Shown: piece after piece, positions 5,476 to 46,441 of the stretch
Numbering within the stretch: the first letter of the stretch is position 1
Layout: every line of letters begins with the position of its first letter
IMG/VR virus record: IMGVR_UViG_3300021066_000003
Reading direction: 5' to 3' (one strand)
Length of the DNA stretch: 49,320 nt
DNA from: a virus
Notes under the pieces: generated by a model
The model's database searches: none
Told to the model about the DNA's origin: nothing
The model's input: the letters and a program-made list of their open reading frames with translations, nothing else
Translations under genes and position numbers: made by a program

Positions 5476-5723
5476 TTCCGTTTCGCTCGAAGTTCGGCCT
5501 GCTTCGCCTTGTGGGCCTCAATCCGCGCGCTGTCACCCTCGATGAGCGCACGGATAACCTTCAGATCGTTTTCGGCGAGTTCGGCATCAATCTTCGCGTT
5601 GTGCGCCGCCGCTTCGCGAGATGCCCTGCCTGATTCCCAAGCCGCTTCCTCGGCCTGACGTTGCGCAACCTCCTCGTCCGTCATGGGAACGGGTTTCCCG
5701 TCTACAGATTTCATGTAGCTCAT
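5472..5723 (-). CDS. Small coiled-coil protein downstream of the tail fibre (83 aa), possible fibre assembly factor
   Basis: ATG at 5723 overlaps the fibre TGA (ATGA). Sequence is MSYMKSVDGKPVPMTDEEVAQRQAEEAAWE...AELRAKRK. The longer track ORF (to 5870) would overlap the fibre gene. Confidence 0.55.
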   Translation of the reverse strand: MSYMKSVDGKPVPMTDEEVAQRQAEEAAWESGRASREAAAHNAKIDAELAENDLKVIRALIEGDSARIEAHKAKQAELRAKRK

Positions 5724-7216
5724 GATTTCCTGACTCCGTAGAGGATGAACGTGCCGCTTATGTTTCCACTGGAGGTGAGAATGCGGAAAGCATTCACCGC
5801 CGACGTGTTGAGGTATCGCCCGCCGACGTGGAACGCCGCAATGGTGCTGGCGTCGCGAAACCATGTGCAATGATTATTGGTCCACTTATGGCGGCTGGAA
5901 TTAACTCCGTAGATTTCAACGCGCCCCACTAGTGAGGCGGTTGCCCCGTTGTCTAGGCCCAAAGCAAGGCGTATCTGTGCGTCTGCGATGTCACCGGATG
6001 CTCCAGCAGTACCACCTGCGTCCGTATTGCCTACGTTCGTCCAAGCGTAGTCGGACGCTCCGGCATCGAACGACGCGCCGCCGTTCGTGTCCATGCGCAG
6101 CCACAGATCCACGTTGTCCGTCGCAGGAACAACGTCGTGCATCAGGATTATGTAGTTGTCGTAGGTGCTGTCGATGCCAGTTGTGAAGTCCACGGTGGCG
6201 ACGCCGCTCACGGTCTGCGGCTGAATCAATTCCAGAGCAAGCGTCTTGCCATTGGCCTGCACCGTCCCAGTTCCCTTCGGGACCAGGTTCAGGCTGATGT
6301 TCGTGTCGCCGCCAGTCGCACTCAGAGACGGAGCATTGCCGGTGGAATTGTTCGTGACGGTTACTTCGTTAACGGCGCTTGCCGTCTTAACGAACTTCAG
6401 AAGCTCATTGCCGCTTGAATCCGTGATCGGCTGATCCGCGGCGTGTTGGACCTCCGTGCTGGTGGCCTGGCCGAGTACCACCTTGCCGGTGCCCTTGCCC
6501 TTGAGCGTGACGGGGATGTTCGTGTCGCCGCCAGTCGCGGCGAGCGTTGGCCCAGCCCCGGTTGCCGCATTTGTGATCGTTACTTCGTTCACCGCGGATG
6601 CCGTAGCAACGTCGGCGATCAGAACTTCGTTGCCATTGCCATCCTCGATCACGACAGAGGCGCCGGCCCCTGTTCCTTTAGGCCGAACCCCGAGCCCTAC
6701 GTTAGTGTCCCCGCCACTTGCCTTCAGCACAGGGCGGTTGCCGGTTGCGGCGTTCGTAGCAGTGAGCTCGTTCACCGCGCTGGCCGTGGCAACATCGCCG
6801 ATCAGTACCTCGTTTCCGTTACCGTCTTCGATCACGACCGAGGCGCCACTGCCCGTTCCCTTCGGACGAAGCGCAAGCCCGACGTTCGTGTCGGAACCCA
6901 CAACGACCACGCGCGGACGGGCAGAGGTTGCCGCGCCGATGAAGTCGATGCCGTTTACAAGTGACGCCGCCGTCCCGTCGAACCTGAATAGGTCGACCCC
7001 GCCGAGTCTCACATCAACCCGGTCGTCGGTATCTGCCGTCAGCGACGTGTCCGCATCGCCGTCAAGGATCAGCTCGTAGCCATCCATGTCGAGCGTGCCT
7101 GTCAGCGGGGAAATCAGCGACCGGGCATTGTTGAGGATGTTGTTGAACTCGGCATTCAGGTCCGAGGCCGTGAGCACTTCGCCGGACACCCACGTTTTGA
7201 CCCTGGAGAGCGCCAT
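5720..7216 (-). CDS. Tail fibre protein with internal ~61-aa tandem repeats (498 aa)
   Basis: The N-terminus ...LTASDLNAEFNNILNN... is typical of phage fibre proteins. It carries 3.3 repeats of GGDTNVGL..RPKGTG.GASVVIEDGNGNEVLI.DVATASAVNE.T.TNAATG and a distinct C-terminal domain. Confidence 0.75.
   Translation of the reverse strand: MALSRVKTWVSGEVLTASDLNAEFNNILNNARSLISPLTGTLDMDGYELILDGDADTSLTADTDDRVDVRLGGVDLFRFDGTAASLVNGIDFIGAATSARPRVVVVGSDTNVGLALRPKGTGSGASVVIEDGNGNEVLIGDVATASAVNELTATNAATGNRPVLKASGGDTNVGLGVRPKGTGAGASVVIEDGNGNEVLIADVATASAVNEVTITNAATGAGPTLAATGGDTNIPVTLKGKGTGKVVLGQATSTEVQHAADQPITDSSGNELLKFVKTASAVNEVTVTNNSTGNAPSLSATGGDTNISLNLVPKGTGTVQANGKTLALELIQPQTVSGVATVDFTTGIDSTYDNYIILMHDVVPATDNVDLWLRMDTNGGASFDAGASDYAWTNVGNTDAGGTAGASGDIADAQIRLALGLDNGATASLVGRVEIYGVNSSRHKWTNNHCTWFRDASTIAAFHVGGRYLNTSAVNAFRILTSSGNISGTFILYGVRKS
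6257..6898 (-). repeat. Tandem ~183-219-bp coding repeats inside the tail fibre gene
   Basis: Repeat units start (minus strand) at 6898, 6715, 6532 and 6313. The 24-mer gatgttcgtgtcgccgccagtcgc is identical at 6296-6319 and 6515-6538. Confidence 0.85.
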
Positions 7217-7219
7217 TGC

Positions 7220-8824
7220 TTAGTTCTCCACGCTTTCCGCGCCCGGGGTTACGGCCGCTGTGATGCTATGCACTTCGATGTCCTGGTTGTTTGCGCTGTC
7301 CGTGATCTGGTAAGTCACGGTGCGGAACTCACCACCCTCCTCGCCGAAACGGTGGTATCGGTCTACGAATTGCGATCCGCCAAGCGTCGAGGTATCCAGC
7401 GTGAACTGATTCGACGAGGCGCTGCCAAGCACGTCGGCGCCACTCTGCGCCACCGTGAGTGTCTGCTGCGCGTTGTTGTCCCGCGTCCAGCCGAACGTAA
7501 AGTTGAAGTTGCCCTTCGGGGCAAGGCCGATAGCCCCGTGTGACAACTGCTTCATGAGCAGCGGGTTCCCGTAGCTCATGGTCGGGGTAGTGATTTTGTA
7601 GGAAAGGCCGGTGCTGCCGTCGATCGAGCGGTCAGACACATTCAGCCGCCGCACGAACCCATCATTGCCGCCAGCCAGAATCCTGCGCAGCCCGTTCGTG
7701 TCTACGAACGTGGCGAGGCTCGCGGCAGCGTAGGCCTTGAGCTTCGCCCAGCGAATGACGTCCGGCGCTCCGCGGAAATCCATGAGGAGGCACCTGTTGT
7801 TCGTGCTGCTCGCATCCCACGAGGCCGTGACCAGCACCATGCCGGCCAGCTGGTCGGTGGCCGCCCAGATGTTCCGCAGACGGTTGTAGTTCAGATACGA
7901 CCTGATGCCGCCGACGTTGATCGGCCTGGAAAGGCTCGCCTCGAAGAAGTCGCCGAACGCGGACGTGGCGGACAAGCTGTGCACCGACCCGAACTGGCTG
8001 ACGAATCCGATGTCATCGCCGAACCGGAAGATGGCGTTGTGCCAGCACGCACCAAGCCCAGAGACGAACGGCTTGCGCGCGAAGGCATCGGAGCCTGTCG
8101 GCGAACTTCCCGTGATTCGATGGATAGAGCCCTTGTTCGGCCCCTTATGAACCCAGAGCTCGTCCTTGTGGCTCACGAGACCAGTGATGATGTCCCCGTC
8201 GTTCGGGTCGATGTCGATAGACCCAGATCCTGATCCGGTCCAATCCTCCGGGTCGGTATTCGCGCTGTAGTAGAGCCTGGACGGGGCTGACACGACGCCA
8301 GCTGCCCAGGCGCGGTTCTTATGCGCGCAGCCGAACGCGAAGTTCGGCGGGCTGCCGGCGAGGTTCTGCGCGGTGCTCTGATCCCACGACCTCGGCACAT
8401 CCGAGGTGGAGTCTGAAGTGAAGATCAGAAGGTCGTCGAATGTGAAGTAGGAAGGAACCCTCCCGCTTTCGAGCCCAGAGCCGATCGTGGTGGCGAAGTC
8501 CCCGTCGTCGTTGTCGGCCAGAGCCTTCGTCCCGCAGTGCACGATCCTGCGACGGCTTGGGCTGCCGGCAGTGCCATGCCGCCAGTAGTCGAAGAGGCCC
8601 GTGACGACGGCTCCTGACTCCAGCGCAGAGGAGTTGACCTTGGATGCGCCGCCCATCTTGTGCGGGCCGCCGTCCAACTCGAATAGGCAGTCCTCGGCGT
8701 CGACCAGAAATGGAATGACCACCTTCCCGGACTGGTCCGGGGCGACGTCGACTGACGGGCCAAAGTCCGTAGCCCATCCACCGCCGAAGAAGTGTCGCAG
8801 GACACGCGTCGCGTTCGACGGCAC
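7220..8824 (-). CDS. Virion structural protein, tail tube/nozzle-like candidate (534 aa)
   Basis: GTG start directly after the upstream TGA. It is a large Gly/Ser/Asp/Trp-rich, beta-type protein immediately upstream of the fibre gene. The tubular-protein-B-like role is inferred from position only. Confidence 0.45.
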   Translation of the reverse strand: MPSNATRVLRHFFGGGWATDFGPSVDVAPDQSGKVVIPFLVDAEDCLFELDGGPHKMGGASKVNSSALESGAVVTGLFDYWRHGTAGSPSRRRIVHCGTKALADNDDGDFATTIGSGLESGRVPSYFTFDDLLIFTSDSTSDVPRSWDQSTAQNLAGSPPNFAFGCAHKNRAWAAGVVSAPSRLYYSANTDPEDWTGSGSGSIDIDPNDGDIITGLVSHKDELWVHKGPNKGSIHRITGSSPTGSDAFARKPFVSGLGACWHNAIFRFGDDIGFVSQFGSVHSLSATSAFGDFFEASLSRPINVGGIRSYLNYNRLRNIWAATDQLAGMVLVTASWDASSTNNRCLLMDFRGAPDVIRWAKLKAYAAASLATFVDTNGLRRILAGGNDGFVRRLNVSDRSIDGSTGLSYKITTPTMSYGNPLLMKQLSHGAIGLAPKGNFNFTFGWTRDNNAQQTLTVAQSGADVLGSASSNQFTLDTSTLGGSQFVDRYHRFGEEGGEFRTVTYQITDSANNQDIEVHSITAAVTPGAESVEN

Positions 8825-9847
8825 TCAGTCCTCCATCCGGTCGAAGCGGCCGTTCACGTCATACCTGCGCCCGCGCGACCCGCTCCAAGGCCTCTGCGCA
8901 CGTCTGGCGTACCCCTGCATCCGCGGGCGCAGCTGCGGGCGGTTGGCGCCGATCTCGACGTCGCCCATGACCCTGAGCATGACGTCCGTGTAGTCGGACT
9001 TGGCAGAGTCCGCTCTGGCATCATCTTTCTTGTCCCGATACCAGTTGTAGAGCGCGTGGTACAGGATGGCGTGCCGATAGCGCAGCGGCACGATCGGCTC
9101 GTCCGTGGTCGCCGACATGCTCGTCAAGGCCGTCCCGGTCGTGCTCACCGCAAGATTCGCCGTGATGTAGGAGTACGGGATGGTCATGTTCGTCGACGGC
9201 GGGGCGTGGAATTTCACCCTGCGGATCGGCGTCGTGTTGCCGCTTGGCGCGTAGTCGATGATGCAGGCGACGGACGGGCGCGAGGGCACCGAGTTCGCCG
9301 GATAGCGTCGGCGAAACTCCGTCCTGCTGATGAGATCTATCGCCACCTGGTCGGAGAAGCGCTGCATGTCCAAGGGCCGCAGGAAGTCCGAGGCGAGGTC
9401 GTACTCGTCCTCGTAGTAGACGTAGGTCTCGCCGCTTACCGTTGTCTCCGTGAACTTGCTCGACAGGACAGCAGCCGTGTCACTGCTCACCGAGGAGATC
9501 GTGTACGGGTTGAGCGCCCCGGCGATGCGGACCTTGCCGTTCGCCCGCATGTTCTTCACGGTGAATTCGTTGTTCGTGTTCCACGCAGTCCCGGAGCCAG
9601 TCAGGGCGGTGTCGCCCTTCGTGACGCTCACCGTCCCGGTCGTGTACTGCGCCTGCGTGACGATCACTGCGTTGCGCTCTGCCCACGGGAACTTGTAGTC
9701 CGTCCCGAGGTGCATGTCGTGAAGTGCTATGTTGATGTAGCGCTTCGCCTGGTTTTCGGTGGCCGTTACGCCAGTCGCTTCCCTCGTCCGGTTCTGAAGA
9801 TCGGTGAAAAGGTCACTGAACGTCGTTAGCTGCGATGTGGCGCTCAT
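8825..9847 (-). CDS. Virion structural protein, head-tail adaptor / tail tubular-A-like candidate (340 aa)
   Basis: Track ORF with non-repetitive protein-like sequence (MSATSQLTTFSDLFTDLQNRTREATG...RYRHAILYHALYNWYRDKKDD...). Function is inferred from synteny only. Confidence 0.4.
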   Translation of the reverse strand: MSATSQLTTFSDLFTDLQNRTREATGVTATENQAKRYINIALHDMHLGTDYKFPWAERNAVIVTQAQYTTGTVSVTKGDTALTGSGTAWNTNNEFTVKNMRANGKVRIAGALNPYTISSVSSDTAAVLSSKFTETTVSGETYVYYEDEYDLASDFLRPLDMQRFSDQVAIDLISRTEFRRRYPANSVPSRPSVACIIDYAPSGNTTPIRRVKFHAPPSTNMTIPYSYITANLAVSTTGTALTSMSATTDEPIVPLRYRHAILYHALYNWYRDKKDDARADSAKSDYTDVMLRVMGDVEIGANRPQLRPRMQGYARRAQRPWSGSRGRRYDVNGRFDRMED

Positions 9848-9853
9848 TCGTCC

Positions 9854-10882
9854 TCATGCAGTGAACGGACCTGGTTTGCGGCGCGCGGCGTAGGTCCGCA
9901 TCGCGCCATCGCCCAGGCTATGCGGATTCCTGAAACGCACTTGCGCCCGCGGGTTCGTGCCAGCCAGCACCACGTAGGCACCGCGCTTCACTCGAATCTT
10001 CTCGTTGAGCAGCAGATCACGTGTCGCGCTCGCCACTTCGACGCCGCCTGCATAGACAACATTCGTCGCGTCGGTCGTGTACCCGGTGTCGGTGTCGTAG
10101 ATCGTTACCGTGTTGTCCGTGGCGGCGCCCGCGATCATCGAAATGCCGGTGATCTCGCCAGGCCCGACAAAGGCGTGACCGGACTTGGTCAGGTAGTCGG
10201 CCTGCCGAAACCGCTCAACCTTCGGCCCGAGACGCGCGTCGTCGACCATGACATCATCGAACAGCAGATAACCTTTCGTGGTCCCGGCGTCCTGACCAAC
10301 CACGCCGAGCCTTGCTTGGGCAATGGCCGCCTGATCGAGCGATGAGACAGTAGTCGCCGCCGCATCGTCCAGGCGCAGCACGAGAGAACCGTCGTTGCTC
10401 GCGCCATCGTCGAGAGTCACGGCGAGTTCCACCGTATGCCAAACCCCTGTCGTCAGCGGTAGGAACTGGCTGCCTGACGTCTCGCCGACGCCGATCCGCA
10501 ACCCGTTTGCCGTCGTGTAGTTGATGACGACCACGGCTTCGTTCGTTGGCCCGGCGGACTGCAGCGCGAGGATGATGAACTCGTCGGTGTCCGCCATCGT
10601 TATGTCCGTGGACACGAAAAGCTGGAACCGGACATGCTCGACGCCATCGAGCGCAAGATCGAACCCGTCGTCCTCCTGCACGTAGGCGTCGGCCGGCGTG
10701 CCGTCATTTGCCAGGTTCACCCGCATGCAGTAGGCGCCGCGGAACGGCATCGCCAGGCCAGTGAGCGAAGCGAGTGTGGTGTAGTGAGGAAAATCGAGCC
10801 GGGTTTCCGTGTCGGTTTCGCTGTTGAAAGCTCCCCGCGTCCCGTCTTCGAAACCTTCCTCGAAAAGCCAGGGAAAGGCCAT
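9854..10882 (-). CDS. Virion-associated protein with a possible ConA/LamG-like jelly-roll N-terminal domain (342 aa)
   Basis: MAFPWLFEEGFEDGTRGAFNSETD...WHTVELAVTLDDGASNDGSLVLRLDD... resembles lectin/glucanase-fold openings. The fold assignment is unverified. Confidence 0.4.
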   Translation of the reverse strand: MAFPWLFEEGFEDGTRGAFNSETDTETRLDFPHYTTLASLTGLAMPFRGAYCMRVNLANDGTPADAYVQEDDGFDLALDGVEHVRFQLFVSTDITMADTDEFIILALQSAGPTNEAVVVINYTTANGLRIGVGETSGSQFLPLTTGVWHTVELAVTLDDGASNDGSLVLRLDDAAATTVSSLDQAAIAQARLGVVGQDAGTTKGYLLFDDVMVDDARLGPKVERFRQADYLTKSGHAFVGPGEITGISMIAGAATDNTVTIYDTDTGYTTDATNVVYAGGVEVASATRDLLLNEKIRVKRGAYVVLAGTNPRAQVRFRNPHSLGDGAMRTYAARRKPGPFTA

Positions 10883-10886
10883 TGGC

Positions 10887-11603
10887 TCACTCCTTCGCAG
10901 CCTTCTCGGCCGCTTTGCGCTGGCGTCCTGCCTTCATGGCCGCCTTCTGCTCCGGGCTCATGGTGCGCTTTGGTTTCCCTTGCTTCGCGTTCGCCAAGCC
11001 GATTCCGTTCTCGATGTGGTCCTTCACCGCCGAGCGCTGATCGTTCGACATGAGGCTGGGCTCGAACCCAAGGGACTTGAGGTATTCGATCTGCTCTTGG
11101 CTGAAGACGACCGCGGGGCCATTGGTGGCCGGCATGAAGAACTGCTTCCCTTGGATCTGCGCGTTGTCCATGTTCAGGGTCGACGCAGTCGGGCGGTGCT
11201 TCTCCAGATTCGCCGCGTCGCGCTCGCCGGGCCGCAGACGCAACTGCAGGTTCTTCCACTCCAGAATCCTCGCCTTGTTTCGGCCTTCCCAACTCCGATG
11301 CTTGTCGACCGCGCCCGGAGGAGCCTTGCGCATCTCCTCCTGCGAGGGCATCCCCGTGAGGATTTCGTTGAGCAACTGTCTGCTCCTCGCCACCATGCGG
11401 CCTTCCTCATCGGCGTTCGCAGGGGGTTTCGGGATCTGCTGCTCGTACAGCTTTTTCGAGCGCTGCAGTTGCCGATAGACCTCACCCTTGTCCTGGATGT
11501 GCGGGCTGGTCATCTTGGCCTCCAGCGAGGCGATTTCCTCCCGGGCGGCTTGGGCCTGATCCGGGCGAAGGAGCGGTTTCGTGTCGAAGACTTGCGTGTC
11601 CAT
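10887..11603 (-). CDS. Hypothetical protein (238 aa)
   Basis: ATG at 11603 (MDTQVFDTKPLLRPDQ...) lies 2 nt after the acetyltransferase stop. The Arg-rich N-terminal extension of track ORF 10887..11996 is a shadow of the acetyltransferase gene. Confidence 0.6.
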   Translation of the reverse strand: MDTQVFDTKPLLRPDQAQAAREEIASLEAKMTSPHIQDKGEVYRQLQRSKKLYEQQIPKPPANADEEGRMVARSRQLLNEILTGMPSQEEMRKAPPGAVDKHRSWEGRNKARILEWKNLQLRLRPGERDAANLEKHRPTASTLNMDNAQIQGKQFFMPATNGPAVVFSQEQIEYLKSLGFEPSLMSNDQRSAVKDHIENGIGLANAKQGKPKRTMSPEQKAAMKAGRQRKAAEKAAKE

Positions 11604-11605
11604 GT

Positions 11606-12037
11606 TCAGGCTGCCTTTCTGGCTGGGATGCCGACGACCTTCTCGCCGTAGTTGACGTCGTGGGTGACGACAGCACCGGCCGCGACCATCGCGTCGACGC
11701 CAATGACCACCCCTGGAAGAATGACTGCCCCGGCGCCTATGGAAGCGCCTTTGAGGATGCGCGGGGGCTGGGGCACATAGCCGTGGTTTCCCGCTTTCGG
11801 GTACTTGTCGTCCGTCATCGTGACGTTCGGGCCGATGAAGACGTTGTCCTCGATCACAGTGCCGTTCGGGATGAACGCGCCGTGCTGAATGCGGACGTTG
11901 GAGCCGATGCGGCAGTTCTTGCCGACGTAGGCGCAACTGCCGACCACGCCACCGGGACCGATGATCGTGCCCTCGCCGACCGAGGCGTACTGCCATACCT
12001 TCGTGCTTTCGGCGATGCGGGCAGTGTCGGCTATCAC
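11606..12037 (-). CDS. Left-handed beta-helix (hexapeptide-repeat) acyl/acetyltransferase (143 aa)
   Basis: GTG at 12037 overlaps the TGA of the glycosyltransferase gene (GTGA). Hexapeptide periodicity is visible in VGEGTIIGPGGVVGSCAYVGKNCRIGSNVRIQHGAFIPNGTVIEDNVFIGPNV...ASIGAGAVILPGVVIGVDAMVAAGAVV. Confidence 0.7.
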   Translation of the reverse strand: MIADTARIAESTKVWQYASVGEGTIIGPGGVVGSCAYVGKNCRIGSNVRIQHGAFIPNGTVIEDNVFIGPNVTMTDDKYPKAGNHGYVPQPPRILKGASIGAGAVILPGVVIGVDAMVAAGAVVTHDVNYGEKVVGIPARKAA

Positions 12038-12747
12038 GCGACCCGCCGGATGTTGTTGCCCCAGCCGACCTCTTCTGGCTCGTCCCAGAGCACCGGCCCT
12101 TGCGGGGTAATGTGGCCGGCGTACCAGCGGCCCTGATAGCGCTGGGGCGTGATGGTCACGTTCGCGATGTGCGGCATCACCCGGTCGCAGTCCACCCAGA
12201 CGTCTACACCGAAGTCGTGCATGCGCTGGATGAAGTACATATCCTCCATGAGCCGCCCAGGCGTGAGCTTCCCGCCCTCGAACCACGGATCGCCAAGGCG
12301 GTCGAGCACGGGTTTCCTGACCAGCGCCCCAGCCTGCCCAGCCGAGTCGCCCTTCGGAAGCTTGAATAGCCCCTGCGTCGGAAGATCCAGCCACGAGTAG
12401 CGCCGCATCTTCTCGGCAATCGGCCCGTGCATCAGGCATGGGACGAACGGCGAGTCCCGGCGCGGAACGACCGGCAGCACGAAGTCGAGTTCGCGGTCGA
12501 GCAGCCTGAGAAGCAGGTCTGCCTCGAAGGTATGGTCGTCGCCGAGGAACCAGCACCATGCTCCGGTCATCCGGCGCACGCCTTCGTTCAACTGGTGCGG
12601 GATGTCCGCGCCTCTGGCGGCGATGAGGCGCGTGCCGTGCGGAACCTGCAGCGCCTCGATCGACAGCCAGAACTCCGCATATCGCGCCAGGGAGGCCGCC
12701 GTAACGACGACCGTCCCCGGAGCGTGCTGGGAGGAAACGTGCTGCAT
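12034..12747 (-). CDS. Glycosyltransferase-like protein (237 aa)
   Basis: A Rossmann-like N-terminus (TVVVTAASLARYAEFWLSIEAL) and a DxD-type motif (WCWFLGDDHTFEADLL) fit a GT-A fold. The start shares one base with the upstream stop. Confidence 0.55.
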   Translation of the reverse strand: MQHVSSQHAPGTVVVTAASLARYAEFWLSIEALQVPHGTRLIAARGADIPHQLNEGVRRMTGAWCWFLGDDHTFEADLLLRLLDRELDFVLPVVPRRDSPFVPCLMHGPIAEKMRRYSWLDLPTQGLFKLPKGDSAGQAGALVRKPVLDRLGDPWFEGGKLTPGRLMEDMYFIQRMHDFGVDVWVDCDRVMPHIANVTITPQRYQGRWYAGHITPQGPVLWDEPEEVGWGNNIRRVA

Positions 12748-13691
12748 CAGCCGGTGGACAGCGTGCCGCCCGTGCCGCCCTGAATCGTCGCGATGTAGTT
12801 GTTGCAGAGCACGATGTCGCTGGTCGCCGTAGCTTCCGTAAGGTCGCCAGCCACCGCGTGCATGCAGCGCATCACCATCACCGCGTGATCGTTCGTGTTG
12901 CCAGTGACGTCGATGACGTCCGTCATGATGGCGCCGGAACTGTGGATGAAGTCGCAGTCCCGGATGGTGAAGTTGTCGACGCCGGTCGTGATCTCCACCA
13001 CGTCATCCCAGGCCGTCGAGCCAGCCAGCACCACTAGGCTCCTCTGCAGGACCCCGCCGTCCATCCCGCCAGTCGCCGCAGCGCAACGCAGGAACGGCCC
13101 TTGGTTGTCCTCTACGTAGACGTAGTGATTCGACAGGCGCGGACGGGCCGAAGCGCCGGTCACGCTGATGCCGAAAGTAGCGGTATTCGCTGCGGTGGTG
13201 ATGTTCCACGTGATGTCATGGAAGTTCGCGTCCGCGGCAGCGAGGCTGATGCCAGCCTGCGCCGAAGCCGGGACGATGTGCACGTAGGCAATCTCGGTTC
13301 TCGCCGAGGACACCGTGAAGACGGCGGCAGAAGCCGTGGTCGTCACTGCCGCGTCGTACCTGGTCGTGCGCGTGCCATGCTCGTGCGGGTCGATAGGACC
13401 GCCGGGCACGCCGAGCACCTTCAGGCCAGCCTTGTTGATGGTCTGCGTCGCGCTCCATGAATGCGAGCCAGGCAGGAGCATGATGACGTCTCCCACATCT
13501 GCGGTCGCGTTCGTCACTGCCTGGTTCACGGTCAGAAGCGCACGCTCTGGGGAGAGGCCGTCGTTGTTGTCCGAGGCAACGTAGCTGCGTCCCTCTACGG
13601 TGTAGCTCGCTGATGGGGCCACGAAGAACACGCGGCCGGTCGTGATCGGAATGGCGCCCCAGAGGGTGCCGTACGTGGTCAGGTAACTCAT
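12747..13691 (-). CDS. Right-handed parallel beta-helix (pectate-lyase-fold) protein, candidate depolymerase or fibre/spike (314 aa)
   Basis: Opening motif ...SDNNDGLSPERALLTVNQAVTNATADVGDVIMLLPG..., then Thr/Ala/Gly-rich beta-helical repeats. A strong SD (aaggaga) sits upstream. Confidence 0.6.
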   Translation of the reverse strand: MSYLTTYGTLWGAIPITTGRVFFVAPSASYTVEGRSYVASDNNDGLSPERALLTVNQAVTNATADVGDVIMLLPGSHSWSATQTINKAGLKVLGVPGGPIDPHEHGTRTTRYDAAVTTTASAAVFTVSSARTEIAYVHIVPASAQAGISLAAADANFHDITWNITTAANTATFGISVTGASARPRLSNHYVYVEDNQGPFLRCAAATGGMDGGVLQRSLVVLAGSTAWDDVVEITTGVDNFTIRDCDFIHSSGAIMTDVIDVTGNTNDHAVMVMRCMHAVAGDLTEATATSDIVLCNNYIATIQGGTGGTLSTG

Positions 13692-13761
13692 CTGTACTTC
13701 TCCTTCGCCACGATTTCCGCCCTACCCGTCCGCTTGCGTGGCCTCAAGTCTGGACCAGCGG

Positions 13762-13944
13762 TTAAATGCCTTCGCTCTTGACGAAAAATTTCCCGAACCA
13801 TCCGGTTTTCGGGGTGCCGCCAGAACGGTCCTTTTGCTTCGAGCCGAGGTTCGGACTCGCAGGGGAGCCTTTGGGCGTGTTGCCGTGCCCGCCGGCCCCC
13901 TTGCGGTTCGCCCCGTGCTGGTTGTTCCAGTACGGGTTCGCCAT
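13762..13944 (-). CDS. Small basic Gly/Lys/Pro-rich protein (60 aa)
   Basis: ATG at 13944 shares one base with the capsid gene TGA (TGATG). Sequence is MANPYWNNQHGANRKGAGGHGNTPKGSPASPNLGSKQKDRSGGTPKTGWFGKFFVKSEGI. The rest of track ORF 13762..14715 is a capsid-gene shadow. Confidence 0.45.
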   Translation of the reverse strand: MANPYWNNQHGANRKGAGGHGNTPKGSPASPNLGSKQKDRSGGTPKTGWFGKFFVKSEGI

Positions 13945-14861
13945 CACGTCACCTGTGCGCCGAGAACCCAGCGCCAGTTCGTGTACACGTTGGCGTAGCG
14001 GGCGTAGCCGCGCCACTTGCCGACCAGCGTGTCGAAGTCCTCCACCATCGCGAACTCGACCGGCACGCGGTCGGCCCACATCACGTACATCTTGCGCATG
14101 CGCGAATCGCACATGAACCAGTTGTTCGTGTCGGTGAAGTAGCGGCACTCGTAGCCCTTGTACTGGCCCTGGTGCACGTTCGGGTTGTTGTTCGCTGTGT
14201 CGACCTTGCCGCTGGCCTTCATGATCTCGTAGGCCTGCTCGTAGAGGTCCGGCGGATACCAGAGCTCGTCCGGGGTCACGTCGATCTTCTCGGCCTGGTC
14301 GCCGCGGAAGCCGACCATCTGGATCCGAGCCGCCGCCACCGCGGTCGCTGTCAGCGATGCGGTGATGAGGTTGTCGAAGCCGGCCGACGTCGAGGCGCCG
14401 GAGGTGGTCGTGTGGCTGTTCGAGCACAGCGCGACGCCTTCGGAGTGGCTGTAGAAGAACGTGTCCACGCTGAAGGCGTTGTTGAAGATGCGATGCGCGT
14501 GCTGCTCCCGGGTTCTCGCGTAGGACGACGCGAGCGCCTTGGGCCGCTGGTCGAGGATGTGGAACTGCTCGTCGTCGACGAGCTTGCGTTCCGCCTGAAT
14601 GCCCTTCGTGAACTCGACGAAGGTCATCGTCACGTCGTAGCCCTGGTTCAGCGAACCGTAAGACACCGTGCCGGTGAACTCGTCCCAGCCGCCGATGGTC
14701 CCGACTTCGGACCACGTCATGTTCTGACGGCCGCTGTGGGGAACGGTGCTGTAAATCTCCCCGATCATCGACGGGATCTGGTTTTTCTCCTCGTGGAAGA
14801 TGCGCTGAAACCGCGGGTCGAGGAGGTCCGCAAACGCGGTGGACTGCATTGGGGTTGCCAT
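13944..14861 (-). CDS. Major capsid protein, HK97-fold type (305 aa)
   Basis: Its size, its position after the scaffold gene, a strong SD (aggaga) and a sequence typical of ~300-aa phage major head subunits (MATPMQSTAFADLLDPRFQRIFHEE...WRGYARYANVYTNWRWVLGAQVT) support the call. Confidence 0.75.
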   Translation of the reverse strand: MATPMQSTAFADLLDPRFQRIFHEEKNQIPSMIGEIYSTVPHSGRQNMTWSEVGTIGGWDEFTGTVSYGSLNQGYDVTMTFVEFTKGIQAERKLVDDEQFHILDQRPKALASSYARTREQHAHRIFNNAFSVDTFFYSHSEGVALCSNSHTTTSGASTSAGFDNLITASLTATAVAAARIQMVGFRGDQAEKIDVTPDELWYPPDLYEQAYEIMKASGKVDTANNNPNVHQGQYKGYECRYFTDTNNWFMCDSRMRKMYVMWADRVPVEFAMVEDFDTLVGKWRGYARYANVYTNWRWVLGAQVT

Positions 14862-14883
14862 GTCTGTTCTCCTGGACTCTCGG

Positions 14884-15606
14884 TTAGGTCACGGTCGCGC
14901 CGAGGAGGTGGTCGACGAACTGGATGAGCGCGTAGCTCTTCGTCGTGCCCTCGTTGGCGATGTCGTTGAGCACCATCTCGACCACGACGATCGTCGCGTC
15001 GCCGGAGATCGCTACCGTGGCGTCGACTTCCGTGCAGTTGGTCGTCAGCTGGGCCGTGATCGTGCTAAGAGGCGACACTCCGGCGTACAGGAATTGATCG
15101 CCGACCGCCGTGTCGTATGGGAACGCCACCGTAACGGTCGCCGCGTTCGCCGCAGTCGACGTGATCTTCCGGGCTTTGCCAGCGTTGGCGCCGCTGTATC
15201 CCCAGATAATCCCCTCGTCCAGGTCCGGGCTGTTCGGGTCGAACCCTGAGGTCGTCACCGAAAGGCCATCCGTGGAAGCCGTGGTTACGGTCGCGGCCGT
15301 AAGCGCGGTGCCGTCCGCCGCGCCACCGGAGAGCCGGGCGCGGAAAACCGCCGTGGGGTTGATGATGAGCGACGTGAGCCGCGCCGTGTCGGAGTTGTCC
15401 GACTGCTGGGCCGTGACGTAGGTCCCGGCTGCGTCGACGTTCACTCCGACGAAGTCCACGGCGCCGCCAGTCGTGCCGAGCACGACGCCAGAGCCGTTCG
15501 ATGCCACCTTCAGGTAAGGCCTGCCGATAACGGTGTTCGTGGCCGCGACTTGGTACTTCTTGACGATGGCCGTCGAACCGCCGGACAGGTCGTATGCGAA
15601 TTCCAT
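14884..15606 (-). CDS. Putative head decoration/cement or second capsid-associated protein (240 aa)
   Basis: ATG at 15606 (MEFAYDLSGGSTAIVKKYQVAATN...). It is Thr/Ala/Gly-rich, of beta type, and sits directly upstream of the major capsid gene. Confidence 0.4.
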   Translation of the reverse strand: MEFAYDLSGGSTAIVKKYQVAATNTVIGRPYLKVASNGSGVVLGTTGGAVDFVGVNVDAAGTYVTAQQSDNSDTARLTSLIINPTAVFRARLSGGAADGTALTAATVTTASTDGLSVTTSGFDPNSPDLDEGIIWGYSGANAGKARKITSTAANAATVTVAFPYDTAVGDQFLYAGVSPLSTITAQLTTNCTEVDATVAISGDATIVVVEMVLNDIANEGTTKSYALIQFVDHLLGATVT

Positions 15607-15610
15607 GTTC

Positions 15611-15970
15611 CTATCCTCTGAACATGCGCCCGTACTCAGCGGCCCGCCGGTAGTTCTCCACCTTGCGGTGCTCGGCCTCCGCATCCTTCTCGTTCAAGAA
15701 AAGGGACGCGAAACCGAACTGCTGGCATACGTCGCAGTTGCCCCTAACGCGCCGAAGGTTCCTGTCGGGGTGAAGGCGGTAGTGCGCCTTGGCCGGCTGA
15801 AACTTGCGGGCGTGCGTAGCGCAGAGGATTACGGCCTTCCCGAGAGCGATCATGTCGTCCAGGTTCGCGCTACCACTGGTGTAGCGGTTCTTCCTGAACT
15901 CGTCCCGTTTCAGTTCCGCCCGCTTGATCTGCCGCGGCGTGTACTTCCCGGGAATGACGATTTCGAGCAC
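15611..15970 (-). CDS. Hypothetical Cys-containing protein (119 aa)
   Basis: GTG start. The composition is protein-like (…RKNRYTSGSANLDDMIALGKAVILCATHARKF…RGNCDVCQQFGF…). Confidence 0.55.
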   Translation of the reverse strand: MLEIVIPGKYTPRQIKRAELKRDEFRKNRYTSGSANLDDMIALGKAVILCATHARKFQPAKAHYRLHPDRNLRRVRGNCDVCQQFGFASLFLNEKDAEAEHRKVENYRRAAEYGRMFRG

Positions 15971-16026
15971 GGCCTAGCCCCTGCGTTTGCGGGGTTTGGA
16001 CCTCGATCGGCGGTTTGGATAACGCA

Positions 16027-16842
16027 CTAGGCCGGAAGCCCTAGTCGACGACGAACGTTCGGCGATGCGTAGGAAAGCTCCTTCTCGACGTCTTCCCAAT
16101 CCTTGTACCTGCCGCTCTTGATGCCGCGCTGATAGAAGTCCTTGTGTTCTCCCTTCAGCGCGTCCACTAGCTTCTTGCCGGTCGGCTTTCCGCCGCCGCT
16201 ATCGCCGCTTGAGCCGCCCTGCTCGTCGTGGTCTTCCACGCGACGCGAATTGGCAGCCTTCTGCAGCTTGTCCAGTGGACCCAGCACCGACCGGATCGCG
16301 GCGAGCTCGGTTTCCACGGATTTCGGTTGCCCGATACTGGTGAGGTAGTTGAACTCCTCCTGCACCTTTTTCCGTGTTTCCGAGCCCGATTCCATGATCT
16401 CGGGCTTGAGCCGCTTGTACGCGGAAATGTCCGCGTCGATGCGTTCCTTCTTCGTCCGTGCGTCTACGGCAGCATTCGCTGTAGCGTTCGCGTGCTCGAT
16501 GGCCTCCTCACGCACCTGCGAGGCCCACCTGTCGTCGGCCTGCTCCTGCGTGATCTGGCCGGCGTCCACCGCGGCCTTCAACTCGGCCCTGGTGAATCTC
16601 TTCGGAGCCTGGCGATCGTCGTCCTTCCTTGACGCTGCGCCTGACTTGAACGCCTCGAACTCGCGCGCCTGGGCTTCCAGCTGGCCCTCGTAATGGGCTC
16701 GCTGGCTTGCAAGCGCCGCCTTCAGCTGCTTTGCCGTAATCGGCTTGTCGTCGTTATCCGAACCACCGTTCGATGATCCGCCTGACGAAGCGCCACCCTC
16801 GCCGTTTTCGACGTTGTCCACGTCAGCGTGTTCTTGAGTCAT
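16027..16842 (-). CDS. Scaffolding protein candidate (271 aa)
   Basis: ATG at 16842 (MTQEHADVDNVENG...). It is acidic and helical, with Gly/Ser-rich ends, and lies between the portal and capsid genes. Confidence 0.6.
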   Translation of the reverse strand: MTQEHADVDNVENGEGGASSGGSSNGGSDNDDKPITAKQLKAALASQRAHYEGQLEAQAREFEAFKSGAASRKDDDRQAPKRFTRAELKAAVDAGQITQEQADDRWASQVREEAIEHANATANAAVDARTKKERIDADISAYKRLKPEIMESGSETRKKVQEEFNYLTSIGQPKSVETELAAIRSVLGPLDKLQKAANSRRVEDHDEQGGSSGDSGGGKPTGKKLVDALKGEHKDFYQRGIKSGRYKDWEDVEKELSYASPNVRRRLGLPA

Positions 16843-16951
16843 CGCGCCTTCCCGCGTTGCCAGCCCGCGTCGACCGGGCAAGTACGACCGTTGCGGCCGA
16901 ACCTACGGGGCGCTATTGGAAGACGAGGTTTTTGCGGGGGTTTCTGCGGGT

Positions 16952-17230
16952 CTACGCCGCAAGGGCGTGGCGCCGAACAGGGCCGAGCCATCCCCCGGTG
17001 TCAGGGGGGGAGTCGTGAAAGTCCTCAGGGCGGTATACGCCCTCGGCGAGCAGCCAATCGCGCAGGCCAGCCGGGCTGTAATAGGCCTTGTCGAAAGGAC
17101 CCTTCACCCGGAGTTCAAAGAGCCCGTTTTCCTTCTCGTGCCTGAACCAGTATTCCCACTTCGCCTCGTTGATCTTGACGAAGAACTGCTTGACGGCTCG
17201 GCGGCTAAGAGGACGGTTGGGTAGTCTCAT
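16952..17230 (-). CDS. Small protein, possible excisionase/AlpA-like DNA-binding fold (92 aa)
   Basis: Track ORF. ...LSRRAVKQFFVKINEAKWEYWFRHEKENGLFELRV...YYSPAGLRDWLLAEG... The fold guess is weak. Confidence 0.4.
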   Translation of the reverse strand: MRLPNRPLSRRAVKQFFVKINEAKWEYWFRHEKENGLFELRVKGPFDKAYYSPAGLRDWLLAEGVYRPEDFHDSPPDTGGWLGPVRRHALAA

Positions 17231-17609
17231 TTTTCTTCTCGAATTGCACGATGAACTCGTCGGCTTCCTTCCCGCCCTTCAGGATGTAGGCCGGGAGCTC
17301 GATTGCGAAGCGCAGGGTTTCAATGGCGACGTTCGCCTGGAAGATGTCGTGGCGCAGCTTGCGCACCTCGGCGTCGTCCAGCACCGATGGGTCGCCAAGG
17401 CGGTCATGCGCCTTCTGCTTCGCCTTGGTGTAGTTCTCGGCGATGCCCTGCAGGTAGGTGCAGTACCGCCCCCACTCGTCGGTTCGCTGCAGGCTGTCCA
17501 TGAGAGGGGCTGCGCCGGCCAGTATCCTCGCCATCGGAAGCATGCTTTGCTGTGCACGCGCATGGCGCTGGGTCAACGACTGCTGAACGTCCTTGCGGTC
17601 TACGATCAT
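17205..17609 (-). CDS. Hypothetical protein (134 aa)
   Basis: Track ORF with an ATGA overlap to the oxidoreductase gene. The sequence is helical and protein-like. Confidence 0.6.
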   Translation of the reverse strand: MIVDRKDVQQSLTQRHARAQQSMLPMARILAGAAPLMDSLQRTDEWGRYCTYLQGIAENYTKAKQKAHDRLGDPSVLDDAEVRKLRHDIFQANVAIETLRFAIELPAYILKGGKEADEFIVQFEKKNETTQPSS

Positions 17610-18430
17610 GCGGCCATCCTGATTTGGCTAACCTGGCGCACGATGTCCTCGGCCAGGAATACTGAATCGGCGGCCTGTATGGCCCCTTCGTAGTCGAGAC
17701 GGCGCTGTTGCACCGCATCAAGGAAATGGGCCAGTTCGTCCTCCAATGGCGCCTTTTCGGCGAGGAGGTCAGCCCGCAGGTAGCCGTCCTCGGCATGCGG
17801 TGAGTCGACGTAGATGGTGTGCCACTCTCGCACGTTCTCGTCGTGGACACGGCTTGCGCGCAGATACGCATCGCTGCCGCAGGGGAAGTGCAGATGCGCT
17901 TCAGCATCGTCCGCGGAGCCTTTGGCTTTCTGCCACAACGGCATGCCCAGCATCGAGATCAGCAGGTCTAGGTCGTGGATCATGAGGTCGTGGACCACGT
18001 GCACGTCTAGGCACCGCCCGTTCTCTACCGAGCACCGGCTGATCTCGGCGATCACCGGCGCCTTCACCGCAGCCGCGAGCCGACGAAACGCCGGATTGAA
18101 GCGCTCGATGTGGCCGACATGCAGCACCGTCCCCATCCACCTCGCCCGCTCTACCAGGTCGATGGCTTCACTCGCGTACTGAGCCACCGGCTTCTCCACC
18201 AGTACATGCATGCCCTTGGAAATCAGCCCGTAGGCTAGATCGAAGTGCTGCGTGGTAGGGACGGCAACAATGGCAGCCCGGAACGGCCCTTGGCTGTTGC
18301 CAAGCTCGGTCGCAAGGCGCTCCAGCCGCACTTGGTCCACGTCCACTAGCCCGACTTCGAGGCCCATGCGGTGCAGAGTTCTGGCGTGGCGCTCGCCCAT
18401 CTTTCCGCAGCCGACGACGACGACCTTCAA
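17606..18430 (-). CDS. Gfo/Idh/MocA-family NAD(P)-dependent oxidoreductase (274 aa)
   Basis: N-terminal Rossmann motif MKVVVVGCGKMGERHA, the family hallmark VLVEKPVA, and GHIERFNPAF. It overlaps the portal stop. Confidence 0.75.
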   Translation of the reverse strand: MKVVVVGCGKMGERHARTLHRMGLEVGLVDVDQVRLERLATELGNSQGPFRAAIVAVPTTQHFDLAYGLISKGMHVLVEKPVAQYASEAIDLVERARWMGTVLHVGHIERFNPAFRRLAAAVKAPVIAEISRCSVENGRCLDVHVVHDLMIHDLDLLISMLGMPLWQKAKGSADDAEAHLHFPCGSDAYLRASRVHDENVREWHTIYVDSPHAEDGYLRADLLAEKAPLEDELAHFLDAVQQRRLDYEGAIQAADSVFLAEDIVRQVSQIRMAA

Positions 18431-20781: not shown

Positions 20782-21130
20782 TCGCCATCTCCATCCAGCT
20801 ACGCCGCCCCATCTCGCAGAGCAGGCCATTCGCGAATTCGTCGCGGAACTTGTCTACCTTCCCGTCCTGCTCGCGCATGTAGCCTGCGAGGTTCCGACGC
20901 CACAGAACCGTGTACTGCGACGGGTTTAGCGTCTGTGCGCAACGACCGCAAAAGGTGAAATCCGCGCGCCGACCGTCTATGAGAATGAAAGTCACGCGCA
21001 CGGCATCTTCGTTCGGAGGACCAAGGCGCTTCGGCTCGCCCGCCCGCTTTTCGCCTTCATCCCATCGCTGCAGAACCTCAAAGCAGGGCTCGTCGCAAAT
21101 GGAGCAGCAGCCCGGAATCTTGTGCGTCAC
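20774..21130 (-). CDS. Cys-rich (zinc-finger-like) protein (118 aa)
   Basis: GTG at 21130 overlaps the upstream TGA (GTGA). Contains ...[15 protein letters not shown]...FTFCGRCAQ... Confidence 0.6.
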
Positions 21131-21987
21131 GGCACAACCCTCCAACGAAGGAACGAGCCCGCCTTTGCCGTAACTGCCGTGCCGGCGGTCTCACTCGCAA
21201 GCTGAATCCTGACGCTGCCGACAGGCGCGGCACCGGCATCGCAGTTGCCCCATACCGTCGTCGGCCAAGACTGCGTCGTGTTCGGCAGTCCGCCGACCGG
21301 GATGAGGAGCGAGGCACCAATGTTTCCTCTCGCGTTCAGGACCGCCGTCGCGCTCTGGGCCTCCTCGATGTTCGCGCAGCCATCCGTGAGTCCTGCGGCC
21401 CATGCGAGACCCAATCGCGGATTCGCGGACGCTGTGGCGGTTCTCAGCCTGATCTGTCCCTCGAACTCGTAGCGCGTGTTGGCCGATGGCATGAATCCAA
21501 GCCCGATCACGTCAACCGCAGCGGTCAGCGCAGTGGAAAAATCGCTTGTCAGGCGGGCATAAATCCATCCATCACCGGACTGCGGGCTGGTCCAATGGGT
21601 CGCGTAGTCGGCATCGGAACTCTTCGCGAGAATCTGCCCGGTGGTTCCGCCGGCCGGGACTCCCTGCCCGTCCTGACCGTCAGCACCAGCTGGGCCTTGC
21701 GGACCTTGGGCGCCCGCCGCCCCCGGAGCGCCATCGGCACCAGCCGGCCCAGGTTCTCCCTGCGGTCCTTGCGGCCCAGCGGCGCCCTGAAGTCCTTGCG
21801 GCCCCTGTTCCCCATCTTGTCCTGGCGGGCCGGCCTCGATCGTCACCGTGACTTCCGCCTGGTCAGACGTCGTGCTGCGAGTAAGCGTCACCGCAGGCCC
21901 GACAAAGTTGAGCGTGCTCACCTCCTGCCCGAGCCTCACCCCGTCCTTCGCCACGTCGATGAACCACGTTCTCGGCTTCGTGTTCAC
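21127..21987 (-). CDS. Collagen-like repeat fibre protein (286 aa)
   Basis: Nineteen uninterrupted G-X-Y triplets ([57 protein letters not shown]), then [21 protein letters not shown] and a globular C-terminal domain. Confidence 0.85.
21661..21831 (-). repeat. G-X-Y (collagen) triplet repeat coding region
   Basis: Residues 53-109 of the 21127..21987 product form 19 consecutive Gly-X-Y triplets. Confidence 0.9.
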
Positions 21988-22148: not shown

Positions 22149-22377
22149 CTGGGACGTCCGGTAACTTGAAGCCGCTTTGGCCGTACTGCTCGATCAGCTT
22201 CTCGCGCTTGCCTTTGAACACCGTGGCAACAGACAGCCGCTCCGCTTCCTCGGCTTCCTGGAATGCATTCGCGACCTTCTCGCATGCCTCGCAGTAGTCA
22301 CGTTTGATGACCATGCCGACAACCTTCGCTTCCTTGATCGCGCAGCCGCAGCCATCGCAGGAGTAAGAAACCGCCAC
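22141..22377 (-). CDS. Zinc-ribbon protein (78 aa)
   Basis: MAVSYSCDGCGCAIKEAKVVGMVIKRDYCEACEKV... It sits directly after the terminase large-subunit stop. Confidence 0.65.
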   Translation of the reverse strand: MAVSYSCDGCGCAIKEAKVVGMVIKRDYCEACEKVANAFQEAEEAERLSVATVFKGKREKLIEQYGQSGFKLPDVPDA

Positions 22378-46437: not shown

Positions 46438-46441
46438 CGGC

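Follow-up and report, generated by a model that had tools for sequence, protein, structure and literature searches.

A predicted glycosyltransferase gene downstream of the major capsid gene in the late operon of an uncultured SU10-portal-type phage

Introduction

To our knowledge, the glycosylation of tailed-phage virions by phage-encoded glycosyltransferases (GTs) has been shown experimentally essentially only in mycobacteriophages, where it blunts antibody recognition. According to three articles that refer to Freeman et al. 2023, Cell Host Microbe 31:1216 (PMC12619734, PMC11600133, PMC11256854), mycobacteriophage GTs glycosylate the capsid and the tail tube, and the sugars form a shield. 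Here, we describe a locus in the IMG/VR virus record IMGVR_UViG_3300021066_000003, a stretch of 49,320 nucleotides that is referred to below as the window. In it, a gene for a predicted soluble GT (B237) and a gene for a putative nucleotide-sugar N-acetyltransferase (AcT; C143) are embedded in the late structural operon, between the genes of the major capsid protein (MCP) and of an SU10-type adaptor. Relatives of the GT recur after MCP genes of unrelated lineages, and we tentatively consider late glycosylation of a virion protein to be the best reading of this arrangement.

Mycobacteriophages Che8, Corndog, and Myrna resemble the window in encoding their own GTs, and several GT genes can be clustered there with genes of tailoring enzymes such as an O-methyltransferase. 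They are actinobacteriophage siphoviruses, whereas the window represents a phage with an SU10-like portal, in which the GT gene is translationally coupled within the head-tail operon. A sequence-only reading of the window had invoked mycobacteriophage GT genes next to capsid genes as a precedent; glycosylation of the virion by such enzymes stands, but in cluster F1 (Che8-type) the GT genes are located near the 3' end of the genome and not beside the capsid gene (PMC11256854). The window further differs from mycobacteriophages in that its GT is paired with an AcT and accompanied by a putative 3-dehydrogenase, and in that glycosylation is here a prediction from the genes.

Seroconversion by Gtr and tailspike-linked genes (P22 gtrABC, SfV/SfX, epsilon15) offers another comparison. 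Like these systems, the window combines a GT2-family enzyme with a linked beta-helix gene in what is probably a temperate phage. GtrB, a bactoprenol-phosphate GT, has two partners, the flippase GtrA and a membrane GT that is specific to the serotype. Unlike in Gtr modules, the GT of the window is soluble and has no promoter of its own near int/att, and no Gtr, Wzy, or flippase partner was found among the ~35 window open reading frames (ORFs) scanned, a set that covers small ORFs only partly. In chlorovirus PBCV-1 and in the fibrils of Mimivirus, virus-encoded GTs and amino-sugar N-acetyltransferases glycosylate the virus's own particle in the cytoplasm. These are dsDNA viruses of eukaryotes with unrelated capsids.

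The candidate sugar-donor enzymes of the window recall the UDP-GlcNAc3N(Ac) and dTDP-3-acetamido-sugar pathways (GnnA/WbpB, GnnB/WbpE, WlbB/WbpD/QdtC/FdtD): an oxidoreductase, GFO, is GnnA-like, and the AcT matches solved enzymes at 2e-20 to 9e-29. In contrast to these pathways, the DegT-type aminotransferase step is missing from the phage ORFs scanned, and in contrast to a cellular glycan locus, the phage genes are split over two sites of the late operon. Two further proteins encoded in the same block, A314 and E342, share the folds of pectate-lyase-like phage tailspikes or depolymerases and of ConA-like PL14/PL20 lyases (e.g., Chlorella virus vAL-1). They differ in being short (314 and 342 aa) and in the location of their genes, which are flanked by those for the capsid and the adaptor and are not grouped with tail-fibre genes; structural matches of A314 do not exceed a TM-score of 0.49, and no catalytic residues were assigned in either protein. 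We found no published description of this arrangement in our coverage of the literature, which is incomplete.

Results

B237 is a predicted GT-A glycosyltransferase encoded in the late operon

The part of the late operon that contains the GT gene reads, in the direction of transcription, as follows.

13944..14861, minus strand: MCP, 305 aa, the neighbourhood anchor and a candidate glycosylation target (PF10124, 2.7e-10; PF25209, 1.5e-7)
13762..13944, minus strand: s60, a small basic Gly/Lys/Pro-rich ORF with a length of 60 aa and a pI of 10.5, linked to the end of the MCP gene by TGATG
12747..13691, minus strand: A314, a predicted type-I right-handed beta-helix protein, acidic and Ser/Thr-rich (AlphaFold2, AF2, and Foldseek)
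12034..12747, minus strand: B237, a predicted soluble GT-A (GT2-like) glycosyltransferase, accessory cassette gene (motifs and Pfam matches of the family)
11606..12037, minus strand: C143 (AcT), a predicted left-handed beta-helix N-acetyltransferase, optional second cassette gene (Hexapep PF00132, 4.6e-22)
10887..11603, minus strand: D238, a basic orphan of low hydrophobicity, pI 9.7, backbone gene (no family match)
9854..10882, minus strand: E342, a predicted N-terminal ConA-like jelly roll followed by a C-terminal beta domain, backbone gene (AF2 and Foldseek)
8825..9847, minus strand: SU10-type adaptor, the downstream border of the block (PF24175, 1.4e-5, 26.1 bits at a cut-off of 27)

The junctions between these genes are:

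MCP/s60: TGATG, 1-nt overlap
s60/A: 70-nt spacer that contains a ribosome-binding site of the GGAG type
A/GT: TGATG, 1-nt overlap
GT/AcT: GTGA, 4-nt overlap, the AcT start codon being GTG
AcT/D: 2-nt gap
D/E: 4-nt gap
E/adaptor: 6-nt gap

The five ORFs from A314 to E342 were also called independently in the source contig (ENA ERZ27257322 k141_29437; 314/237/143/238/342 aa), and the GC content at their codon positions is typical of real genes. No sigma-70-like promoter was found across positions 8500-18600. The only terminator-like hairpin on the coding strand of this interval is a weak one at 13793-13805 (minus strand), inside the 3' part of s60 and thus shortly behind the MCP gene, where it might reduce transcription past the capsid gene.

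The sequence-only reading had described these five consecutive ORFs as one glycan-enzyme island, joined throughout by overlapping start and stop codons and lying between the MCP gene and tail tube-like genes. The ORFs themselves, their embedding in the late structural operon (no promoter, tight junctions), and the nature ascribed to their products (a beta-helix protein, a GT-A-like enzyme with a DDH motif, a GTGA-coupled hexapeptide acetyltransferase, a protein of no recognised family, and a possible ConA-like protein) agree with our results. Overlapping codons are present at the A/GT and GT/AcT junctions, but the remaining genes are spaced. The block does not directly follow the MCP gene, since the 60-aa ORF intervenes before A314, and the genes downstream code for the SU10-type adaptor and a nozzle-like protein instead of tail tube-like proteins. 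The list of sugar genes had also missed a Gfo/Idh/MocA gene at 17606-18430, and the single five-gene island gave way, as shown below, to a backbone with a variable insertion.

B237 contains motifs of the GT-A core: DxD for metal and nucleotide sugar, xED for the catalytic base, and the C-terminal His. Residues G69-D70-D71-H72, E168-D169, and H193 are invariant in 29 GT sequences. When the alignment was widened to 58 sequences (mean identity ~28%), D71 and H193 remained invariant, and D70, H72, E168, and D169 were conserved in at least 90%. In the Pfam database, PF00535 is matched by 28 of the 29 family members at E<=0.01 (best 4.6e-8) and PF13641 by seven of them (best 2.8e-7), while B237 itself scores 19.1 bits against the GT2 model, below the cut-off of 23.3 (E=1.3e-3). 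Searches of the PDB with the single sequence or a profile returned no GT, only spurious DsbA/thioredoxin matches. No transmembrane segment is predicted in B237, the highest Kyte-Doolittle mean over 19 residues being 1.13. On the strength of its motifs and of the family matches, we classify B237 as a predicted GT-A/GT2-type glycosyltransferase. Its 111 homologues are all metagenomic.

Predicted GT relatives follow capsid genes in several lineages

When 1.84 billion representative proteins were searched with a profile, 7455 relatives of the GT were retrieved at E<=1e-3 and 1824 at <=1e-10; at <=1e-30, there were 411 clusters (defined at 50% identity). The ten relatives inspected come from metagenomes and lack an informative name. 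In some members of the family, the GT is joined to a second domain, either GT17 or a weakly matching methyltransferase-like one. Two uncultured podovirus-like genomes of ~39 kb in GenBank (MW202711 and MW202496) contain, one after the other, genes for a scaffold, an MCP, a 100-aa ORF, and a GT. In MW202711, tail tubular protein A comes next after the GT; this GT matches our A1 profile at 1.4e-15.

A scan of IMG/VR with a narrower GT alignment (A5) yielded 78 new loci, 35 of which belong to the phage family of the window and have the order MCP-A-GT(+/-AcT)-D-E. The other 43 belong to other lineages. The nearest large ORF upstream of the GT was compared with PHROGs in 14 of these 43 loci; it was a major head protein (phrog_2263/phrog_10) in nine, a portal in two, and another protein in three. 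In the nine loci, zero to four small ORFs are located between the MCP and GT genes. Downstream of the GT, these lineages encode an ORF of ~65 aa, then a Thr/Ala/Gly-rich protein of ~132-144 aa, and then a protein of ~400 aa. The ~132-144-aa protein (L067:6435-6869; L088:6912-7310) matches the podophage GP4 fibre I gp80 family (PF23140, 3.3e-10), and the ~400-aa protein is in one case beta-helix-like (PF13229, 1.1e-4). An AcT gene is found near the GT gene in five of the other-lineage loci and directly adjoins it in one (L095). Taken by gene order and profile matches, the predicted GT family thus occupies the head-to-fibre/tail junction, right after the MCP gene, in at least four MCP lineages.

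A counter-example to capsid linkage is cyanophage S-TIM5, which encodes a distant member of the family (JQ245707.2 16050-16724; L039:6743-7417; A1 profile 1.4e-11) among the 'bacterial-like' genes psbD, speD, and pstS, away from the capsid gene. As a cultured cyanomyovirus, S-TIM5 is a possible experimental handle on the family.

The GT gene is co-inherited with one subtype of the beta-helix protein

We compared the window with ~60 related metagenomic loci of its phage family, which were annotated by BLAST and family hidden Markov models (HMMs). Every locus with enough sequence has the same backbone: MCP, usually a small ORF, an A protein of ~310 aa, a D protein of ~240 aa, an E protein of ~340 aa, a variable stretch, and the adaptor. 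The GT gene, with or without the AcT gene, is present in part of the loci, always directly after A. About 18 loci have no GT (e.g., L007, L009-L013, L015, L016, L022, L024, L028), and in two (L008 and L019) a very distant GT (A1 HMM, ~1e-7) occupies the same slot. Additional GT paralogues were found in tandem (L026, 6940-7674), downstream (L027, 10187-10963), and upstream of the portal gene (L003, 1147-1803). Because GT-less relatives have MCP-A-D-E, the five-gene island was rejected.

Genomes with the GT are scattered over neighbour-joining trees of both MCP and portal. The presence of the gene follows the subtype of the A protein: every locus with a window-type GT has a type-I A protein (A2 HMM score of at least 229 bits), and none of the loci with a type-II A protein (65 bits or less) has a window-type GT. 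A type-I A protein without the GT was seen in three loci (L009, L022, L028). In the subset retrieved with E342, which is unbiased with respect to the GT, five type-I loci have the GT and three do not, compared with none and ten of the type-II loci (Fisher's exact p~0.007 in a hand calculation that ignores phylogeny). In these comparisons, A(type I)-GT(-AcT) behaves like a unit that is inherited together, and D and E behave as backbone.

Gene content varies greatly between E and the adaptor, and the larger interval from MCP to adaptor accommodates tailspike-like, LamG, and other inserts. A gene for a Pel9A-like beta-helix protein of 910 aa was seen downstream of E in L036 (15013-17745), and one for a Laminin_G_3 protein of 903 aa between AcT and E in L037 (13090-15801); both are probable spikes or fibres. 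Since such large inserts are present in close relatives, the MCP-to-adaptor interval can be regarded as a swap zone for spike- and fibre-like proteins. Relatives also encode modifying enzymes within their tail modules: L008 has a GNAT acetyltransferase (PF00583; 16819-17307), and L037 has, just after the adaptor gene, a weak match to class-I methyltransferases (19822-20379).

Candidate sugar-donor enzymes

C143 matches, by sequence, PDB entries 7s43/7s3u (8.7e-29), 4mzu (6.9e-26), 3mqg (2.2e-20), and 3fs8 (4.5e-17), of which we take 4mzu to be a WxcM-like protein (FdtD), 3mqg to be WlbB, and 3fs8 to be QdtC. Its best NCBIfam match, NeuD/PglB/VioB, scores 71 bits against a cut-off of 161. These relationships place C143 in the predicted class of nucleotide-sugar 3-amino N-acetyltransferases (QdtC/WlbB/FdtD-like). 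A second candidate is encoded further upstream in the late operon:

17606..18430, minus strand: GFO, a Gfo/Idh/MocA NAD-dependent oxidoreductase of 274 aa, between the portal and scaffold genes (PF01408, 6.8e-17)

The translation of GFO contains the EKP motif (VLVEKPVA). Within NCBIfam, the protein best matches the model of archaeal UDP-GlcNAc 3-dehydrogenases, NF040723, at 2.3e-31 over residues 1-163 alone, and since its score is 109.4 bits against a cut-off of 450, we call it GnnA-like and do not file it as a member of the UDP-GlcNAc 3-dehydrogenases. Among solved structures, its closest match is 7bvj (1.2e-20), an entry that a preprint identifies as GnnA, a UDP-GlcNAc 3-dehydrogenase (bioRxiv 10.1101/2024.11.05.622173). 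The GFO gene was absent from all of the related loci examined, including close relatives whose GTs are 68-75% identical, and is therefore regarded as a separate insertion in this phage. Together, AcT and GFO suggest a 3-acetamido-sugar donor, possibly made by the route UDP-GlcNAc to 3-keto to 3-amino to 3-acetamido sugar. No DegT-type aminotransferase was found among the window ORFs scanned.

Proteins encoded around the GT and AcT genes

The AF2 model of A314 (pLDDT 83.5, pTM 0.84, from an alignment of 37 sequences) consists almost entirely of short beta-strands. At either end, ~15 residues are predicted to be disordered, yet are conserved. All 50 of the Foldseek matches listed in the PDB are right-handed beta-helix proteins, the best being 7chu (E=6.8e-5). 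They include Geobacillus virus E2 ORF18, GH136, alginate and pectate lyases, pectin methylesterases, and phage tailspikes, and are spread over several families with no dominant polysaccharide lyase (PL), glycoside hydrolase (GH), or carbohydrate esterase (CE) family. The model thus confirms the right-handed beta-helix fold as predicted. A search of the PDB by sequence gave no matches, and PF13229 or PF22842 is found in a few of the homologues, of which there are at least 578, all metagenomic. A cap motif, GDxIxLxPG, is kept in 21 diverse homologues. Type-I and type-II A proteins have only the N-terminal anchor and the cap in common, and acidic residues that are conserved within type I are lost in type II. 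Ser and Thr make up 20% of A314. The protein is probably a virion-attached carbohydrate-binding or -cleaving protein, judging by the model, and is a candidate target or partner of the GT.

The AF2 model of E342 (pLDDT 88.9) places the jelly roll in the N-terminal ~220 aa. The best Foldseek matches in the PDB are the PL20 and PL14 lyases 2zzj (3.5e-9) and 5gmt (4.6e-8), 3gne is matched at 2.0e-7, and lectins and toxin binding domains score nearly as high; the Pfam match to PL14 is below threshold (E=0.071). Some homologues carry PF14099 or PF13385. In BFVD, most matches are uncharacterised viral proteins, some are ConA-like/LamG proteins, and one is named 'virion structural protein'. At least 477 homologues were found, all metagenomic. 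The next-best homologue of E342 is 68% identical, compared with 84% for the GT and 85-88% for A314; faster divergence of E342 than of A and GT among close relatives fits a host-interacting or otherwise diversifying protein. From the modelled fold, E342 is probably a carbohydrate-binding or -cleaving protein of the virion. For both the beta-helix and the ConA-like proteins, a virion or carbohydrate-binding role is more likely than membership of an enzyme pathway. The ~400-aa proteins encoded near the GT in L067 and L072 were considered as E342 homologues; the profile match covers ~45 residues at E~0.01-0.03, and the homology was dropped.

Searches of Pfam, PHROGs, NCBIfam, and the PDB returned nothing for D238, even with a profile. 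Its homologues contain a conserved central motif, EEMRxNPxGAV...W(K/R)N...ERxRP...NAQIP, and are found in relatives with and without the GT alike. Our guess is that D238 is a virion or assembly protein. The slot of s60 is likewise filled, in many relatives with or without the GT, by an ORF of 60-80 aa.

The phage genome

The window, which makes up nearly all of a metagenomic contig of 49,334 bp, is a nearly complete genome, of ~49 kb, of an uncultured tailed phage. It encodes an SU10-type portal (PF23899, 7.9e-19), an HK97-like MCP, a DnaB helicase, and two tyrosine integrases; since two integrase genes are carried, the phage is probably temperate. These tyrosine-recombinase (Phage_integrase) genes are located at 30521-31459 (minus strand) and 46415-47425 (plus strand), and one of them adjoins the DnaB helicase gene. 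The order of the late operon on the minus strand is large terminase, collagen-like protein, portal, GFO, two small ORFs, scaffold-like protein, a 119-aa ORF, dec240, MCP, s60, A314, B237, C143, D238, E342, adaptor, nozzle-like protein, and fibre. Beyond the genes listed above, its features are:

22377-24029, minus strand: large terminase
14884..15606, minus strand: dec240, an acidic Ser/Thr-rich protein (22%), backbone gene between the scaffold and MCP genes, candidate glycosylation target
7220-8824, minus strand: nozzle-like protein
5720-7216, minus strand: fibre

The MCP also matches phrog_371 (major head protein) in PHROGs at 3.2e-11. In the related loci, its identity is 45-68%, with one outlier at 33%; that of the adaptor is 45-70%. 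No family in Pfam, PHROGs, or NCBIfam matched dec240, which is conserved in relatives at 28-54% identity.

A 286-aa collagen-like protein is encoded between the terminase and portal genes (21127-21987, minus strand); it has a Gly-x-y region of the GPQ/GPA type and a C-terminal globular domain and is probably a fibre. This protein was considered as a BclA-style glycosylation target and rejected, its repeats being Gly-Pro-Gln and not Gly-x-Thr. A 241-aa protein with a helix-turn-helix of the LuxR/GerE or sigma-70 region-4 type is encoded at 24016-24741 (minus strand), in a gene that overlaps with the beginning of that for the large terminase; it may be the small terminase or regulate late genes. 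According to the independent gene calls in the source contig, an 888-aa gene crosses the start of the window (window positions 1-2535) and probably continues at the opposite end, which would make the window a circularly permuted assembly; its product is possibly an ejection or internal protein.

Positions 9000-16000 had no blastn match in 50,697 GenBank phage records, and tblastn with the GT (E<=1e-3), A314, or E342 gave no match in the same records. The best match of the MCP among GenBank phages is 30% identical and comes from Bacillus phage PK1. One relative was binned with a gammaproteobacterial metagenome-assembled genome. The tentative label of a 'proteobacterial-type podovirus' has this relative and the SU10-like portal and adaptor as its basis.

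Discussion

The folds and enzyme classes encoded at this locus, as well as virion glycosylation in mycobacteriophages, are already known. What appears to be new is the coupling of a GT gene, with or without a gene for a nucleotide-sugar N-acetyltransferase, inside the head-tail operon of a phage of the SU10-portal type, together with the size of the unnamed GT family and its repeated adjacency to capsid genes in several lineages. Embedding in the late operon, the soluble nature of the GT, its linkage to MCP genes, the pairing of GT and AcT, and co-inheritance with type-I A proteins together suggest that a virion protein is glycosylated. We regard late glycosylation of such a protein by the GT as the best reading of the locus, with a confidence that falls a little short of even. 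The soluble GT-A enzyme would act late in infection, in the cytoplasm, before or during assembly. The donor would be a nucleotide-activated acetamido sugar, and the candidate acceptors are the Ser/Thr-rich A314, dec240, or the capsid. C143 would generate this donor by N-acetylating a 3-amino nucleotide sugar; in this phage, UDP-GlcNAc would be turned into the 3-keto intermediate by the GnnA-like dehydrogenase, and an aminotransferase of the host would complete the route to UDP-GlcNAc3NAc or a similar sugar. The paralogues and the fusions to GT17 and methyltransferase-like domains suggest stepwise, multi-step assembly of a glycan. A, D, and E, being family-core genes, most likely code for virion-associated proteins. 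We advance with distinctly more reserve a fuller version of this proposal, in which B237 would represent a large undescribed family of soluble GT-A enzymes dedicated to virion proteins and placed after MCP genes of unrelated lineages, and would here transfer a 2,3-diacetamido-type sugar, made in part by the GnnA-like and WlbB-like enzymes, to a beta-helix or decoration protein.

Several observations weigh against virion glycosylation. Decoration of a virion protein, also proposed in the sequence-only reading, has gained from the position of the GT family in at least four capsid lineages, but catalysis, the sugar, the protein that receives it, and any advantage for the phage, be it shielding, stability, or adhesion, are all deductions. 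B237 itself does not reach the Pfam cut-off for GT2, and its fold is a prediction from the sequence. The donor pathway is incomplete and host-dependent, because no aminotransferase is encoded, and GFO may be an unrelated moron. The nearest solved relatives of the AcT serve O-antigen and S-layer glycan pathways and suit remodelling of host glycans equally well. Three type-I A loci have no GT, so A can do without the GT. Finally, cargo genes might often insert into the slot after the MCP gene, and the adjacency to MCP is therefore suggestive, not diagnostic.

The main rival is remodelling of a host surface glycan, late in infection or in the lysogen, in which the GT and AcT (with GFO) would alter O-antigen, capsule, or S-layer glycan, and the modified glycan would be the receptor or substrate of A. 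The phage would benefit, as with the seroconversion genes of P22 and epsilon15, through a block to superinfection or through progeny not being trapped on debris. Solved relatives of the two donor enzymes (WlbB, QdtC, and FdtD, as well as GnnA) work in pathways of cell-envelope glycans and lipid A, the phage has two integrase genes and is probably temperate, and the cassette is co-inherited with one tailspike-like beta-helix subtype; in P22 and epsilon15, tailspike and conversion genes are linked. We nevertheless consider this explanation unlikely, at about half the weight given to virion glycosylation. Embedding in the late operon, with tight or overlapping junctions and no promoter, makes expression in a lysogen unlikely, the GT is soluble with no transmembrane segment, and neither a GtrA-type flippase nor a Wzy-type polymerase or a membrane acyltransferase was found among the ORFs scanned. 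Moreover, host remodelling leaves the adjacency of GT and MCP genes in at least four capsid lineages unexplained.

The same adjacency argues against the genes being unrelated cargo, a possibility to which we give still less weight. A and E would then be virion depolymerases or lectins, and the GT, AcT, and GFO metabolic morons that occupy a permissive and strongly expressed slot and have no virion target; they might redirect host nucleotide-sugar pools, for instance by draining UDP-GlcNAc from cell-wall or defence glycans. Such a role is consistent with the dispensability of the cassette and its patchy distribution on the MCP and portal trees, with the great plasticity of the MCP-to-adaptor interval, with the presence of GFO in this phage alone among the loci examined, and with the 'bacterial-like' neighbours of the S-TIM5 gene. 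However, a transferase implies an acceptor rather than a mere shift in sugar pools, the family keeps one place with respect to the MCP gene in capsid lineages that are unrelated, the GT-AcT pairing recurs, and the cassette is strictly tied to type-I A. Glycosylation of hydroxymethylated bases in phage DNA as a protection from restriction, as in T-even phages, is highly improbable. Phage GTs that modify DNA are diverse, according to PMC12619734, which refers to Pyle et al. 2024, but the GT gene of the window is in the head-tail module and not in the replication module, and a nucleotide-sugar N-acetyltransferase would be an atypical partner. DNA hypermodification was set aside because the Pfam scan of ~35 window ORFs brought up neither a thymidylate-synthase-like hydroxymethylase nor any other enzyme that modifies bases.

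Our results suggest, short of proof, that the particles of many phages in the environment bear a coat of sugars. If this is true, virion glycosylation would be widespread well beyond mycobacteriophages, and a viral, partly host-dependent route to 3-acetamido sugars would be added to those known. The capsid-linked GT family would make the trait testable broadly, with the A1 and A4 profiles as a sequence marker for choosing cultured or synthesisable phages for glycoproteomics, and bears on phage stability, adhesion, evasion of immunity and grazing, and the engineering of therapeutic phages.

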